A stretch of 64,000 nucleotides of DNA. Origin: a virus. The translations under genes were made by a program, and so were the position numbers. The number at the start of each line of letters is the position of its first letter. Positions within the stretch are counted from its first letter, which is position 1. The notes beneath the pieces are model-generated. The model did not search any database. It saw only the letters and a list, made by a program, of their open reading frames with translations, and was not told the origin of the DNA. The DNA lies in IMG/VR virus record IMGVR_UViG_3300032326_002451, positions 1 to 64,000 of that record, one strand, 5' to 3'. Positions 53,931-62,849 of this stretch are shown in pieces.

Positions 53931-54854
53931 ATGGAACAAGAAATTCAGTTTCTTCCTGATGTAAAGCCAATAGAAATCGCTGATCTTATCGCTCTATCGC
54001 AAGAACAAAATTGGGGTATAGCTGCTTGCTCTATACAAGAAGCTTGGAGAGTTACTAAAGGAGCTGGAATCAGAGTCGCAGTTTTGGACACTGGTATAGC
54101 TGCTCATGATGACTTGAAAGATGCTTGGACTGAAGCATATAATTGTAGTAACGAATCATCATATGATGATATTGGGTCAGGACACGGAACTCACGTTTGC
54201 GGAATTGTTGGTGCAAGAGATAATGCTCTGGGAGTTGTTGGTGTAGCTCCTGAATGTACATTGATACCAATTAAAGTTTTGAACAATAATGGTTCTGGTA
54301 ATTTTGCAAATATTGCAGCTGGTATAAGAAAAGCTATTGAAATAAAAGCTGACATTATTACTATGAGTCTGGGTACTTCGCAAGAACCTCCAATAGATGT
54401 ACATAGAGCAATTAAGGAAGCAACCAATGCTGGAATAATTGTTTTAGCAGCAGCAGGTAATGATTCTGGAAAAACTAATTATCCTGCAAGACTTGAAGAA
54501 GTGATTGCAGTTGCAGCAATTGATGAAAGTGGGAATTACGCTCATTTTTCAAGTGGTGACGAGACAGTAGACAGTGTTGCTCCTGGAGTCAACATTTACT
54601 CTACTTTCTTGAACAATACTTATGCAAAAATGTCAGGTACAAGTCAAGCTTGCCCTTTTATAGCAGGTCTTTGTGCTTTGATATTAGCGCATAACAGAGC
54701 AAACCCAAATATTCCAAGGATAAATAATTATGTTGATATGTTAAAAGCTCTTGATTTAGTTTCAGATGAATCAAGATATATCAATACTCCTGGACAAAAG
54801 AAATGGGGATTTGGCGCTCCCAAAATTGCCAATATTGACTGGAATCAAATTTAG
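53931..54854 (+). CDS. Subtilisin-family (S8) serine protease, no signal peptide
   Basis: Catalytic motifs VLDTG, HGTHVCG, AAGND and GTSQACP. Confidence 0.95.
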   Translation: MEQEIQFLPDVKPIEIADLIALSQEQNWGIAACSIQEAWRVTKGAGIRVAVLDTGIAAHDDLKDAWTEAYNCSNESSYDDIGSGHGTHVCGIVGARDNALGVVGVAPECTLIPIKVLNNNGSGNFANIAAGIRKAIEIKADIITMSLGTSQEPPIDVHRAIKEATNAGIIVLAAAGNDSGKTNYPARLEEVIAVAAIDESGNYAHFSSGDETVDSVAPGVNIYSTFLNNTYAKMSGTSQACPFIAGLCALILAHNRANPNIPRINNYVDMLKALDLVSDESRYINTPGQKKWGFGAPKIANIDWNQI

Positions 54855-54921
54855 TTTCAAGAGCAAAGCAAAAAAACAAATGAACTTTAGCTCTTCTTTT
54901 TCATAAATGAGAGGAAGTGCT

Positions 54922-55389
54922 ATGAATCAGAAGTTTATTAAAATATTATTAATCGCTTTTGTCTTAATAATTTTTATGGTATTGAATCCATATAAAATTA
55001 TAGTCGTAAGGGGAGAATCTATGTATCCGACCTATAAAAATGGTGACATTTTATTAGGTGTGAAAAGTGAAAATTATCAAAAAGGAGATATTGTAGTTAC
55101 TAAAAATGACTACAATGAAACAATTATCAAAAGAATTACATATATGCCAGGAGAGACTTATTACACAGTTTCAAAAATTTTGGCTCATGAATGTTTTGTT
55201 GAAATGGTAGATAAAACTACATACGATAGCATAAAACACAATAGTAATTCAAAATACGTGATTGCAATTAAAGACAAAGTCCCTTTCAATCAATATTTTA
55301 TTACTGGTGATAACAAAAATAATTCTGATGACAGTAGAAGATTTGGATCTATTGAAAAGGATAAGATTCTTTATAAAATAATAAAATGA
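54922..55389 (+). CDS. lepB: Signal peptidase I (S26)
   Basis: N-terminal TM; GESMYPT (Ser), IIKRI (Lys), GDNxxNSxDSRxFG; SD supports the MNQKF start. Confidence 0.9.
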   Translation: MNQKFIKILLIAFVLIIFMVLNPYKIIVVRGESMYPTYKNGDILLGVKSENYQKGDIVVTKNDYNETIIKRITYMPGETYYTVSKILAHECFVEMVDKTTYDSIKHNSNSKYVIAIKDKVPFNQYFITGDNKNNSDDSRRFGSIEKDKILYKIIK

Positions 55390-56054
55390 TAGATGTTAAT
55401 TACTTAGAGATGTTTGTGAAGACATCTCAAACTCGCAAGAAGATTGAAGACCCAATTAAAGAGCTTACTCAAATTGGACTGCAATCTTCTTGCACTATTT
55501 TTGTCAAACATGGCAAAGGTGGACAAAATCAATGGTCCGGAAGCGGATTTCATATCGGAAATGGTATGATTGTAACTGCAAGCCATGTAGTTCCTCCAGA
55601 TCTAAGCAATTTACAGATTGATATCACTTTTGACGATCAATCTTATTATCCTGGAACAGTATACAAATCTGAGCCAAATTTCGATGCTGCTATTATTCAG
55701 TGCCCAGATGTTGCAAATAAAATACCAGCCTTGCAGTTGGGTGATTCTGAAACTTTAGAAGTAGGCGATTTAGTTGTCGTAATAAGTGCTCCAGAAGGAT
55801 TTCATGACACCGCAACATATGGCCGAGTAAGCAATACGCATATGACTTTAGGCGAAAATGCACCATCAGCAGCTTGGCAAGATTTTATTTTTATTGATGC
55901 TGATATTATGGAAGGATCATCTGGTGGTATGGTATTGGGCACAGATGGTTTAGTTTATGGTCTTGTGATGGGTGTAACAGGCCAACACGCTGAAAGTGGG
56001 TTGGGGGAAAATTCAATTTCTCCATCAAATAAAATCAAACAATTACTTTCTTAG
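55386..56054 (+). CDS. Trypsin-like (S1, HtrA-type core, no PDZ) serine protease
   Basis: Triad motifs GSGF..TASHVV, DAAII and GSSGG. Confidence 0.9.
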   Translation: MIDVNYLEMFVKTSQTRKKIEDPIKELTQIGLQSSCTIFVKHGKGGQNQWSGSGFHIGNGMIVTASHVVPPDLSNLQIDITFDDQSYYPGTVYKSEPNFDAAIIQCPDVANKIPALQLGDSETLEVGDLVVVISAPEGFHDTATYGRVSNTHMTLGENAPSAAWQDFIFIDADIMEGSSGGMVLGTDGLVYGLVMGVTGQHAESGLGENSISPSNKIKQLLS

Positions 56055-56066
56055 TATAAAACATAT

Positions 56067-57056
56067 ATGTCAGATCCTCATTCAGTGTTAGGTGTTGCAA
56101 AAAATGCAACGGCTGATGAAATTAAATCAGCATATAGAAAATTAGCAAAAAAGTATCATCCTGATGTCAATAAAGATCCTGAAGCGGAATCTAAGTTCAA
56201 GGAAGTTACAAAAGCTTACGAGGATATATTGAATCCTCAGCCTGTACAAACGCATCAAAATGTTCATCCAGGTTTCAATCCTTTTGATTTTTTTAACCAA
56301 CAATCACAACATAGATCATTAAACACTCCAATATCTGTTGCTGTAACACTTTCAGTTCAAGAGGCTTTCAAGGATGTAACAAAAACAATAAGTTATGTCA
56401 GAAATGTTTTTTGTGAAACTTGTGATGGTAAGGGTGGTTTAGGGTCAGTTAATGCTTGTACTTCATGTATGGGTTCAGGACAGCATAAAATTACATCGCA
56501 ACAAGGCTTTTTCTTTGTAGAGCAAATTTTGGGACCATGCCAAAATTGTTCTGGAAAAGGAAGGGTGTTTTCAGACCCTTGTAAAAATTGTGGAAGTTTT
56601 GGCTACAAGAACAAAGAAGAATCATTCACTATGAATATTCCAAGGGGTTCATTATTCAAATCATCTGTGGTTGCAGACTTAGGTAATCATATTGACAAAG
56701 GTCAAAAACCAGGTCCATTAATTTTAGAAATACACTTAGATCATGAACCGGGTATTAATTTTGACAGAGAATACAACATATTTATTGATAAATATATAGA
56801 TCCAATAGCTGGAATAATTGGTTTTGAAACTAAATTGAATCATCCAGATGGAACTAAGTTAAATTTGAAACTTAAAAATAAAATAACTCATGGACATATT
56901 CACAAATTGGCTAAAAGAGGATTGCCAAAATCTCAAACTGAATATGGTGATTTAAACATCAGATTTTTGTATAATATCCCTGAAGATTTATCTGATGAAG
57001 AAATAAAGAATTTGGAATCTTATTTGGAATCCAGAAGGAAGAGAGAATTATTATGA
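56067..57056 (+). CDS. dnaJ: Class A J-domain co-chaperone DnaJ
   Basis: KYHPD J-domain, four CxxCxxxG repeats, C-terminal GDL domain. Confidence 0.95.
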
Positions 57057-59691: not shown

Positions 59692-59704
59692 AGATTACCT
59701 CCTT

Positions 59705-59762
59705 GACAAAATAAAAAACCGCTGACTTAGTTACCATCAGCGGTTTCAATTATATTTTACCA
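59705..59762 (-). promoter_or_regulatory. Extended -10 (TGGTAAAAT) followed by a leader hairpin with U tract
   Basis: Stem AAACCGCTGA/TCAGCGGTTT at 59716-59746 with an 11-nt loop, then TTTATTTT before the SD. Confidence 0.6.
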
Positions 59763-59852: not shown

Positions 59853-60212
59853 ATGTTCCACCAAACTATCGTTGGCAAGCCAAAACATTGTTTGAATAGA
59901 AATTGTAAAACTCCTTTCTTTAAGGAATCTCATTTAGGATGGTTGCCAAAGTCAGAAGTAGAAGTTTATGCAATCATGAGATGCCCAAAATGCAAAGATA
60001 CATTTGCAGTTGTTCAATTGATATCTATGGCGCATGATTACAAAACTGCTCTACCAAAAGACCCAAGTCAAGTTTCTCCTTCTGGACCTATAACAAAAAA
60101 AGAACTCACGAATTTCAAAAAGAAACTTGATAACAAAGATTCATTAAAAAGTTTATTAGAAGGATACAAACCTGGAGGGTCTGTTATTTCTGAAGACGAC
60201 ACTGACATCTAA
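59853..60212 (+). CDS. Zinc-binding hypothetical protein
   Basis: GGAGGT SD; CLNRNC...CPKC. Confidence 0.7.
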   Translation: MFHQTIVGKPKHCLNRNCKTPFFKESHLGWLPKSEVEVYAIMRCPKCKDTFAVVQLISMAHDYKTALPKDPSQVSPSGPITKKELTNFKKKLDNKDSLKSLLEGYKPGGSVISEDDTDI

Positions 60213-60229
60213 TCCTGTACAATACTTTT

Positions 60230-61942
60230 ATGAGTATTGCAGTAGGAATAGATTTAGGTAGTACATTTAGCGTAGTTTCTTATGTAAAAGCAGATGGAAG
60301 TATTGAGGTAATTCCTAATTCAGAAGGAAACCGCATTACACCATCTGTTTTTGCAATTGATGACCAGTCGCAAATTATGATTGGCGATTTGGCTTCAGAA
60401 TACGAATTAGTTTATCCGGAAAGAGTTGTTAGATTAGTCAAGAGAAACATGTCTGATGGCATGAATAAAATTTATAATTTTGACAATTTTGTTAATTCAA
60501 TAAAATTATCTCCTTGCGAAATATCTTCTGAAATATTAAAGAAACTTAAAAAAGATACAGAAGATTATTTAGGAGAAGAAATTAAAGAAGCTGTGATTAC
60601 AGTGCCAGCTTATTTTAATAACAGTGAAAGAGAAGCAACAAAAGCCGCTGGAGAATTGGCAGGGCTGAAAGTTCTAAGAATTATCAATGAGCCTACTGCA
60701 GCATCTTTAGCTTATGGTCTTGATAAGAACAATGATTCGACAATCTTGGTATACGACCTTGGCGGGGGTACTTTTGATGTTACTGTACTTAAGCTATCTG
60801 ATGGTTGTGATTTTCATGTCCTATCAACTTCAGGAGACACAAAACTTGGAGGAGCAGATTTCGATTCTGCTTTAGGAATTATTATTCAAAATAAATTTGG
60901 CTTTCATATTGAATCTTCCGAATTGAGATCTTTAGCTGAAAAAACCAAAAAAATGCTATCACAATTACAAATAGCAAATGTTCGATACGCAGGACAGCAA
61001 GTTTCAATAAATAGAGAAGAATTTGAACAATCAATTGATAGTTTGATTATGGAAACTAAACATTGTATAGATCAAGCCTTGTCTGATGCAAATTTGAGCA
61101 TAAATGATATAGATGAGGTGGTTTTTGTAGGTGGATCAACAAGAATCCCATACGTTGCTCAAAAAGTGCAAGAATGGCTAAATAAAAGGCCAAATAAGTC
61201 AATCAATCCAGATGAAGCTGTTTCCGTGGGTGCAGCAATTCAAGCTTCTGTTCTTTCGGGTAATTCAAAAAAAGAAGTTTATTTGTTAGATGTCACTCCA
61301 TTATCATTAGGAATTGAAACTCAAGGTGGTTTCATGACAACTATGATCAAGAGAAACACACAAGTGCCTACAGAATTTAAAGAGACTTTTACTACAGCTA
61401 CTGATAACCAAACAGAAGTAGATGTCAAGGTCTTTCAGGGCGAAAGACCAAGAGTAATTAATAATCATTTTTTGGGAGAGTTTAATTTAGAAAATATTAA
61501 TGCAGCACCTCGTGGAATTCCAAAGATTGATGTTGTTTTTGAGGTTGATGCTAACGGTATTGTGTTTGTCAAAGCAATTGATGAAAACACAAAAGAAGAA
61601 AAATCTATGGTTTTGTCTGGAGCAAGTAGTCTATCAAGCTTAGATGTTAATAAAATGCTTCAAGATGCAGAAGATAATAAAGCCAAGGATGAAAGAGACA
61701 GAACCATAAAGAAGTTGACAGATTATCTCATAGATTGTAAAATTCAAATAACTCATCTTCTGAAGTCTGATATTTTGAATAAATCAGAAATCAATGAACT
61801 GATTGACTTAAAAAAATCTATTGACAATGATATAAATTCTGAAAATGTAGAATTTTTATCTTCTTTGTCAGAGTCAGCTAAAGATTTGTTAGAAGTTTTA
61901 TCTGATAAAGTTCATGAAGAAGCAAGTAAATTATTATTATGA
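60230..61942 (+). CDS. dnaK: Hsp70/DnaK chaperone, shortened and atypical
   Basis: GIDLGST, TVPAYF, NEPTAA, DLGGGTFD, VGGSTRIP, LLDVTPLSLG and QGER motifs. Confidence 0.95.
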   Translation: MSIAVGIDLGSTFSVVSYVKADGSIEVIPNSEGNRITPSVFAIDDQSQIMIGDLASEYELVYPERVVRLVKRNMSDGMNKIYNFDNFVNSIKLSPCEISSEILKKLKKDTEDYLGEEIKEAVITVPAYFNNSEREATKAAGELAGLKVLRIINEPTAASLAYGLDKNNDSTILVYDLGGGTFDVTVLKLSDGCDFHVLSTSGDTKLGGADFDSALGIIIQNKFGFHIESSELRSLAEKTKKMLSQLQIANVRYAGQQVSINREEFEQSIDSLIMETKHCIDQALSDANLSINDIDEVVFVGGSTRIPYVAQKVQEWLNKRPNKSINPDEAVSVGAAIQASVLSGNSKKEVYLLDVTPLSLGIETQGGFMTTMIKRNTQVPTEFKETFTTATDNQTEVDVKVFQGERPRVINNHFLGEFNLENINAAPRGIPKIDVVFEVDANGIVFVKAIDENTKEEKSMVLSGASSLSSLDVNKMLQDAEDNKAKDERDRTIKKLTDYLIDCKIQITHLLKSDILNKSEINELIDLKKSIDNDINSENVEFLSSLSESAKDLLEVLSDKVHEEASKLLL

Positions 61943-62340
61943 ATAAACTTGATAGATTAGGATATATAGCTTCAATTATTTGTGCATTACATTGTACAGT
62001 GATGCCTTTTGTATTGGTTGTTTTTCCTATTTTGAGTTTGTCTTTGTTTGTTTCTGAAACTTTTGAGTGGTTTTTTCTTTCAGCCTCTTTACTGCTTGGT
62101 TTGACAAGTTTATGTTTTGGTTACAAAAAACATAAATCTTTGAGAGCATTTCCTTTACTTGCTTCTGGTCTTGCCTTGATTGTAGTAGGTAGAATTATGC
62201 ACCAACACACAATACATCAAAAAGAAATGCATATTGATTTATATAATGTAATTCTTTTTTGTGGTGGAATGTTAGTGGCGTTATCTCATAAAATAAATAG
62301 TTTACTTTGTAATACTTGCTCGAAATGTAACTTAAAATGA
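61939..62340 (+). CDS. MerC-family membrane protein
   Basis: DRLG..ASIICALHC..P, four TM segments, His-rich loop, terminal CxxCxxC. Confidence 0.8.
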   Translation: MNKLDRLGYIASIICALHCTVMPFVLVVFPILSLSLFVSETFEWFFLSASLLLGLTSLCFGYKKHKSLRAFPLLASGLALIVVGRIMHQHTIHQKEMHIDLYNVILFCGGMLVALSHKINSLLCNTCSKCNLK

Positions 62341-62849
62341 AAGAAAAAAATTTAGACCTATCCAATGTTGATAACTCTCTTGATCTTGAGCTTCTTCCAG
62401 TAGAAATAGATCATATAGTGGTTAATCCTGATAAAAGAGTATATGTTGTTTTAGCAAATGAAGACAGACAAAATGGAGTTGAATTAAATCCATTTGAAGC
62501 AAGTCATTTATCTTTTGTCCATAAAGGTTTACACAAAAATTCTCATATCCAAACAATGCATCAGCTATATATTAAAACCTTAGACATTATAAAATCTAAA
62601 GTTGAAGATGTTGTGATTGAATCTAAAGTTGGCGATGTAATTTATTGTTCTGTTAAAATTGTAGATAATAACCATAATCGTTATTTCACAATTGTTTCAT
62701 TAGCTGATGGACTAATATTGTCTAAAATTACAGATAGTCCCATCCATGTGATATCCAATGTTTGGTCTGAAATGGATCCTATCGATGAATGGGACTATGA
62801 AGATTATATATTAGATTTTGAAGATGATGAAGATGACGACGATCAATAA
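62337..62849 (+). CDS. DUF151/bifunctional nuclease family protein, degenerate
   Basis: FEA..L, TMHQL, V.DVVI...G.IY, DGLILS....PI.V pattern; acidic tail. Confidence 0.6.
   Translation: MKEKNLDLSNVDNSLDLELLPVEIDHIVVNPDKRVYVVLANEDRQNGVELNPFEASHLSFVHKGLHKNSHIQTMHQLYIKTLDIIKSKVEDVVIESKVGDVIYCSVKIVDNNHNRYFTIVSLADGLILSKITDSPIHVISNVWSEMDPIDEWDYEDYILDFEDDEDDDDQ

Follow-up and report, generated by a model that had tools for sequence, protein, structure and literature searches.

The sequence analyzed in this study (hereafter the window, 64,000 nucleotides) is the first 64 kb of the 110,315-bp virus record IMGVR_UViG_3300032326_002451 of IMG/VR. Guanine-cytosine content was ~32%, and the record was estimated by CheckV to be 31% complete, corresponding to a phage genome of ~350 kb. 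The window contained a gene encoding an Hsp70 protein, P0001, which the first-pass annotation had described as a DnaK lacking the features that make Escherichia coli DnaK dependent on its nucleotide exchange factor, GrpE. The gene and three sites within it are given below; residue numbers throughout are those of E. coli DnaK unless P0001 numbering is stated.

60230 to 61942, + strand: Hsp70 P0001, 570 amino acids (aa), with a nucleotide-binding domain (NBD), linker, DnaK-type substrate-binding beta domain, and helical lid; the C-terminal tail is absent.
60392 to 60403, + strand: codons for A55-S56-E57-Y58 (P0001 numbering), aligned with A54-K55-R56-Q57 of E. coli; both basic salt-bridge partners are gone in the alignments.
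60920 to 60943, + strand: codons for E231-LRSLAE-K238 (P0001 numbering), aligned with R261-LKEAAE-K268 of E. coli; E264 is replaced by S and E267 is retained.
60971 to 61012, + strand: shortened beta-hairpin of subdomain IIB, I248-N261 (P0001 numbering); the segment 276-302 has 17 residues versus 27.

The open reading frame (ORF) of P0001 was open throughout, with no internal stop, and was translated into 570 aa. Pfam HSP70 (PF00012) matched residues 4-548 (P0001 numbering) with an E value of 5e-159 and 530.6 bits, against a cut-off of 20.6. We aligned P0001 with DnaK, HscA, and HscC of E. coli K-12 (NC_000913) using MAFFT, and with DnaKs of solved structure using HMMER. Identity was highest to DnaK (44%), followed by HscA (39%) and HscC (35%). 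The DnaK equivalogs of NCBIfam were also the top-scoring models, still under their cut-offs (NF001413, 575 versus 648; TIGR02350, 558.9 versus 822.55), and the HscA models likewise scored below theirs (TIGR01991, 489.6 versus 708.55; NF003520, 487.6 versus 620). An AlphaFold2 (AF2) model from a 36-row alignment was a two-domain Hsp70 (predicted local distance difference test, pLDDT, 87) with an actin-like NBD, a beta-sandwich substrate-binding domain, and a helical lid, and its top Foldseek matches were full-length DnaKs at a template modeling (TM) score of 0.89. The model terminated with the lid helix (residues 540-569 of 570, P0001 numbering) and had no disordered tail. Correspondingly, the alignment stopped ~30 residues short of the C-terminus of DnaK, whose tail is charged, disordered, and ~30 residues long, so that the absence of the tail noted in the first-pass annotation was borne out.

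Conservation was scored in a family sample of 121 members, consisting of P0001 and the first 120 clusters at 90% identity; the family thus comprises at least 121 clusters. The ATPase residues (D8, K70, E171, D194, T199, and D201), the interdomain linker (LLDVTPLSLG), L391 and D393, the J-domain contact residues (R167, N170, T173, Q378, and P419), and the latch residues D431 and R467 were conserved in 120-121 of the 121 members. The DnaK-type arch and pocket residues A429 and V436 were present in all 121, and D477 was D or E in 118. Judged by these residues, P0001 has a working Hsp70 apparatus and a client site resembling that of DnaK. The D211 loop was deleted in P0001, as in HscA and HscC. 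Additionally, the residue corresponding to E217 of E. coli DnaK was histidine in every family member (H196 in P0001 numbering, 60815-60817), and E in E. coli DnaK, HscA, and HscC. Because the E217H change and the D211-loop deletion lie near the J-domain face, J-domain docking may be adapted to the J-proteins of the phage itself.

HscA and HscC have neither the K55-E267 and R56-E264 salt bridges nor the "GrpE signature", and ADP release by HscA is 700-fold faster (PMC8215388). In addition, the hairpin 275-302, which contacts the four-helix bundle of GrpE, is required for a functional GrpE complex, and hairpins of the HscA type are 10 residues shorter (PMC10825016). These two papers agree with the background cited in the first-pass annotation, namely the role of the bridges and the lack of the GrpE signature in HscA. 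In P0001, K55 was replaced by S, R56 by E, and E264 by S, leaving E267 as the only retained bridge residue. The E267 glutamate also touches the nucleotide ribose in structures of Hsc70 and DnaK, and its retention is therefore no argument for a bridge. The hydrophobic patch V59-L257 was absent, with L at position 59 and a gap at 257. The segment aligned to 276-302 had 17 residues, identical to the length in HscA and 10 below the 27 of DnaK, and DSSP assigned this part of subdomain IIB in the AF2 model to a tight hairpin (strands 248-253 and 256-261, P0001 numbering). The differences that had been read by hand, AKRQ to ASEY, RLKEAAEK to ELRSLAEK, and a reduced IIB loop, were all recovered in our alignments with DnaK, HscA, and HscC.

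The loss of these signatures extended to the whole family. The first 120 clusters shared 63-95% identity with P0001 and were found on contigs of up to 370 kb; in 50% clustering the family folded into essentially one representative, and the next proteins were at most 53% identical. Position 55 was V, T, A, M, S, or I and never basic, and position 56 was D or E (121/121 for both). Position 264 was mostly N, A, T, or S, and neither V59 nor L257 was retained. E267 was retained across the family, and R263 was present in all but one of the members. Among 80 cellular DnaKs, 77 had the basic pair at 55/56, the acidic pair at 264/267, and a hairpin of 27-28 residues, and three deviated. The same pairs and hairpin length were found in 76 of 80 DnaK-like genes on other viral contigs, and the sole four deviants were members of the P0001 family. 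The signature loss, in 121 of 121 family members versus 3 deviating among 80 cellular DnaKs, is far beyond chance.

We also compared conservation on and off the GrpE surface, using the 187 NBD columns whose conservation among the 80 cellular DnaKs was 80% or higher. Forty of these columns fell in GrpE-contact segments (28-33, 49-61, 131-134, 255-272, and 276-302, taken from PMC10825016) and 147 in the rest of the NBD. The DnaK-conserved residues kept in each protein were as follows.

P0001: 13/40 (33%) in GrpE-contact segments, 113/147 (77%) in the rest of the NBD (Fisher p 3e-7).
HscA-like: 13/40 and 118/147.
E. coli HscC: 12/40 and 97/147.
Eukaryote-type Hsp70: 22/40 and 122/147.
Canonical jumbo-phage DnaK: 40/40 and 145/147.

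Because P0001 retained 13/40 contact residues versus 113/147 elsewhere, and HscA and HscC behaved alike, the relaxation is specific to the GrpE surface and as strong as in Hsp70s that do not use GrpE. The hairpin itself varied within the family, with 27 residues in about half of the members and 17 in the other half, and its length changed at least three times on a FastTree family tree built without the hairpin columns. This repeated change indicates that the hairpin tip was lost more than once and is dispensable, as would be expected if there were no partner for it to hold.

The first-pass annotation had also reported no grpE gene in the window, which held when the search was widened. A six-frame search with PF01025 (E<=1) matched neither the window nor any other part of the 110,315-bp record, and all control genomes matched. 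The same search found no match in a related record of 315,852 bp, which is 88% complete and encodes an Hsp70 87% identical to P0001. A hidden phage grpE was rejected on the basis of these empty searches of the 110-kb record and its 316-kb relative. However, five other jumbo-phage records with canonical DnaK, two of them at least 98% complete, also contained no grpE, with one sub-threshold match of 13 bits among them, so that a missing phage grpE is not diagnostic alone. Going by the alignments, it is the protein signature that sets the P0001 family apart, not the missing grpE gene.

Taken together, P0001 is probably the working Hsp70 of a jumbo phage of ~350 kb and is predicted, by the rules derived from studied Hsp70s, to cycle independently of GrpE. 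In such a cycle, the class A DnaJ of the phage, and possibly a second J-protein, would drive P0001 by delivering phage clients and triggering ATP hydrolysis. ADP would then leave the latch-free cleft unaided, as in HscA; we infer this spontaneous release because the bridges, the V59-L257 patch, and the long IIB hairpin are all gone. Rebinding of ATP would release the client, and the cycle would be paced by J-stimulated hydrolysis. This two-component cycle would need neither host nor phage GrpE.

Several points weigh against GrpE independence, or leave room for continued use of the GrpE of the host, with the altered IB helix and IIB surface retuning the affinity or matching a particular host GrpE. 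We consider such host dependence unlikely. It would fit with the closeness of P0001 to DnaK rather than HscA in model score and overall identity and with the other jumbo phages that have canonical DnaK and no grpE, which must borrow that of the host. The IB loop N29-E31-G32 is retained in P0001, although E31 and G32 are retained in HscA as well. Furthermore, the long-hairpin half of the family retains P284, P293, and L296, and contact with GrpE may have persisted in the ancestor and perhaps persists in the long-hairpin members. Nor is the former bridge site in decay: it is occupied by a family-invariant motif, A54-x-[DE]56-[YF]57-E58, and this acidic motif opposite R263 may form a latch of reversed charge, which would be a compensating bridge of the kind named in the first-pass annotation, or a surface for binding a partner. 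Completeness of the best relative genome is 88%, and Pfam would miss an exchange factor that has diverged very far. From the gene neighborhood, the clients of P0001 are likely to be phage proteins; the Hsp70 gene lies in a conserved block behind giant genes and beside S8, S26, and S1 proteases. Finally, the independence of P0001 from GrpE is a prediction from sequence rules. Nevertheless, 10 of the hairpin residues that contact the four-helix bundle of GrpE are missing in P0001 (PMC10825016), residues 51-61 are largely replaced with both basic residues lost family-wide, and interface retention equals that of HscA and HscC, neither of which uses GrpE. These observations argue for an Hsp70 that cycles without GrpE over one that still depends on the host factor.

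The genes around the Hsp70 gene in the window included the following.

56067 to 57056, + strand: class A DnaJ P0384, 329 aa, with Pfam DnaJ, DnaJ_CXXCXGXG, and DnaJ_C, the HPD motif of the J-domain, and four CxxCxGxG zinc motifs.
59853 to 60212, + strand: zinc-ribbon protein P0302, 119 aa, a candidate partner; the gene ends 17 nucleotides (nt) before the Hsp70 start.
61939 to 62340, + strand: MerC-family membrane protein (Pfam MerC, E 7e-21); its start overlaps the Hsp70 stop by 4 nt, and it is syntenic in loci L002, L010, and L011.
62337 to 62849, + strand: BFN/DUF151-like protein (Pfam BFN_dom, E 4.6e-5, sub-cut-off); it overlaps the stop of the MerC-like gene by 4 nt and is syntenic.

Gene order was kept in four related loci (Hsp70 identity to P0001, 53-87%). 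It runs from a giant 2832-aa protein through S8, S26, and S1 proteases, the class A DnaJ, and two small ORFs to a UvsW-like helicase, the zinc-ribbon ORF, Hsp70, and the MerC-like and BFN/DUF151-like genes. Locus L012 had no zinc-ribbon ORF, and its contig stopped just past the Hsp70 gene. The DnaJ gene lies ~4 kb upstream of the Hsp70 gene and was syntenic in all four related loci. P0384 shared 28% identity with E. coli DnaJ over 351 columns; its C-terminal client-binding domains were complete, and its glycine/phenylalanine-rich region was vestigial. The three serine proteases belong to different clans (S8 subtilase, S26 signal-peptidase-like, and S1 trypsin-like; 53931-56054, + strand) and form a row between the 2832-aa giant protein and DnaJ, with their order kept in the four loci and the proteins 36-93% identical. 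The giant genes of 1000-2800 aa near the Hsp70 gene gave no family match. The MerC-like and BFN-like genes were conserved in three related loci, and no mer operon genes were found nearby. No tRNA genes were found in the window.

Outside the window, the same record contained a second J-protein, P0385 (339 aa, HPD intact; G000:C1 ~87355-88374, - strand), whose C-terminal region had no family match and which recurs in the related records G001 and G007. A ClpX-like AAA+ ATPase was also found there (G000:C1 ~91999-92601, + strand); the loci of this region are labeled L178 and L179. The first-pass annotation had proposed a streamlined DnaK/DnaJ pair without a need for GrpE. The lack of GrpE need was supported at the sequence level by the signature loss, the relaxed GrpE surface, the repeated shortening of the hairpin, the empty grpE search of the 88%-complete relative, the intact engine, and the class A DnaJ, but "streamlined pair" undersells the system, because a conserved zinc-ribbon gene lies upstream and the record also carries a second J-protein and the ClpX-like gene.

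With two J-proteins encoded by the phage, P0001 might also be regarded not mainly as a folding machine but as a decoy or as interfering with host proteostasis or defense, for instance by tying up host J-proteins or substrates, or by hiding phage proteins from immune sensors that depend on chaperones. Counter-defense roles for phage chaperones have been raised in print, with DnaJ-dependent bNACHT25 sensing and SecB-dependent antitoxins as examples (PMC12619734), and the C-terminal domain of no known family in the second J-protein would be in line with them. Even so, we regard this as highly improbable, as the catalytic, allosteric, and substrate-binding apparatus of the Hsp70 is under strong purifying selection and the syntenic class A DnaJ is complete, including its client-binding C-terminal domain. 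The conserved site beside giant genes and proteases, moreover, fits a role in folding or assembly.

The 119-aa ORF immediately upstream of the Hsp70 gene drew attention by its position, since Gram-positive operons have grpE in this place, ahead of dnaK. It was rejected as a grpE candidate; the product, P0302, is a zinc-ribbon protein and not GrpE-like. P0302 contained four invariant cysteines (C13-x4-C18 and C44-x2-C47, P0302 numbering) followed by a conserved C-terminal helix and an acidic tail, as well as an invariant ESHLGW motif. Its identity was 99% in L002, 79% in L011, and 67% in L010, exceeding the Hsp70 identity in each locus. No Pfam or PHROG family was found for P0302; Foldseek returned nothing from the PDB at E<=1e-3, and the matches in the ESM Atlas were only unnamed viral clusters. 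The best fold match was weak, to the zinc ribbon of NrdR (VIA-align Z 4.2).

These properties bear on whether P0001 works with a phage factor other than GrpE, with P0302 as the lead candidate, acting as an exchange factor or as an escort for NBD solubility by analogy with Hep1/Zim17 for mitochondrial Hsp70. The zinc-ribbon gene, with its own Shine-Dalgarno sequence, ends directly before that of Hsp70, it is more conserved than Hsp70 in three loci and restricted to this phage lineage (80 clusters), and the invariant acidic motif on the IB helix of Hsp70 suggests a binding surface. On the other hand, P0302 resembles no known co-chaperone, its zinc ribbon is a generic one like that of NrdR, the gene is absent from L012, where Hsp70 persists, and adjacency is the sole link between the two proteins. 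We therefore give a P0302-type factor a slim chance. Slimmer still is the chance that this phage Hsp70 branch swapped GrpE for a new cofactor, with P0302 as a candidate that would dock on the acidic A-x-[DE]-[YF]-E motif and represent a fifth, structurally new kind of exchange or escort factor.

Between the helicase and zinc-ribbon genes, a 10-bp perfect inverted repeat, ACCGCTGA...TCAGCGGT, was found at 59700-59750. The repeat looks like a terminator and, if it acted as one, would place the zinc-ribbon, Hsp70, MerC-like, and BFN-like genes in a single transcription unit. It was absent from the list of the consensus terminator scan, and promoter and terminator scans around the operon gave no more sites than in shuffled sequence.

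Hsp70 systems are grouped by how they handle nucleotide exchange, under rules derived from only three studied classes, DnaK, HscA, and Hsc70. The P0001 family is a large, phage-only clade and presents a mix in which a DnaK substrate domain that looks generalist and a class A DnaJ are combined with an HscA-type cleft that is apparently exchange-factor-free. This mix contradicts the usual reasoning that only single-client Hsp70s dispense with an exchange factor (PMC8215388). If GrpE independence holds true, the Hsp70 cycle of the virus would have two components and would not be tied to host GrpE levels or to the heat switch of the GrpE thermosensor. Biochemists would also gain a small chaperone system of two proteins, and nature would have supplied a test of the model in which salt bridges and hairpin tune exchange. 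Given the precedent of HscA and HscC, GrpE independence is plausible rather than startling.

In a 60-row maximum-likelihood tree, the family formed a clade with its nearest proteins, P0123, P0126, and P0130, at a Shimodaira-Hasegawa-like approximate likelihood ratio test (SH-aLRT) value of 97; these three proteins are also without K55/R56. The clade was separate from the cellular DnaK, HscA, and eukaryote-type clades. The root was arbitrary, with E. coli HscC as outgroup, and the tree therefore says nothing on kinship with HscC. In a scan of contigs from cellular genomes, the best relatives were 41-48% identical, with none above 48%, and were scattered over many phyla. No cellular donor can be named from such matches. 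Because the clade is separate and no cellular relative exceeds 48%, the family appears to have resided in phages for a long time and not to have been captured recently. The closest phage Hsp70 in GenBank was at most 47% identical to P0001, and the helicase was at most 28% identical to any GenBank phage protein. One family fragment was binned in a metagenome-assembled genome of Bacteroidota, which is weak evidence of the host. PHROGs contains a phage Hsp70 family labeled "unknown function", and none of the papers retrieved in our literature searches described an exchange signature of the HscA type in a phage Hsp70.

That phages can carry DnaJ genes is well known (PMC7824862), and DnaK/DnaJ has been found in huge phages, including moraphages (PMC12619734), Lak phages, and other metagenomic jumbo phages. 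The moraphage pairs were reported as recent captures from Flavobacteriales, and GrpE was not discussed (PMC12619734). Like P0001, these chaperones are phage-borne, often accompanied by DnaJ, and without a phage grpE. Unlike P0001, the huge-phage DnaKs sampled here were canonical, with a full GrpE signature, and nested among cellular DnaKs, suggesting recent capture from hosts. The loci L017, L020, L024, and L064, from jumbo-phage records of 232-437 kb, encode canonical DnaKs that carry the full GrpE signature and nest among cellular DnaKs of the Pseudomonadota or Bacteroidota type. In the 60-row tree, the DnaKs of four other jumbo phages fell among the cellular DnaKs. No grpE above the Pfam cut-off was found in the L017, L020, L024, and L064 records, and these phages presumably rely on host GrpE.

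Among cellular Hsp70s, HscC (E. coli YbeW) shares with P0001 the deletion in subdomain IB (~76-101), the D211-loop deletion, and the short C-terminus, as well as a similar length (556-570 aa) and the absence of the GrpE signature (PMC8215388). However, the two are only 35% identical, the substrate-binding residues of P0001 are DnaK-like and not HscC-like, and the partner of HscC is DjlC (PMC8215388), whereas that of P0001 is a class A DnaJ. DnaK is the best-scoring family for P0001, and the two share the two-domain fold, the ATPase residues, linker, J-domain contacts, arch and pocket, and a class A DnaJ partner. It differs from DnaK in having no bridges, V59-L257 patch, D211 loop, tail, or grpE partner, in a hairpin that is 10 residues shorter, and in the change of E217 to H.

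HscA provides the experimental precedent for GrpE-independent, fast exchange (PMC8215388). P0001 resembles it in the missing cleft bridges, the 17-residue hairpin, and the retention of 13/40 GrpE-contact residues. In contrast to HscA, P0001 has no N-terminal extension of ~17 residues, carries A429 instead of F and V436 instead of M, and lies outside the HscA clade. Its partner is a class A DnaJ, whereas that of HscA is HscB, and a Pfam scan found no HscB-type protein among the window proteins examined. P0001 is thus predicted, from its signature residues, to join a known kind, the exchange-factor-independent Hsp70s, as a variant.

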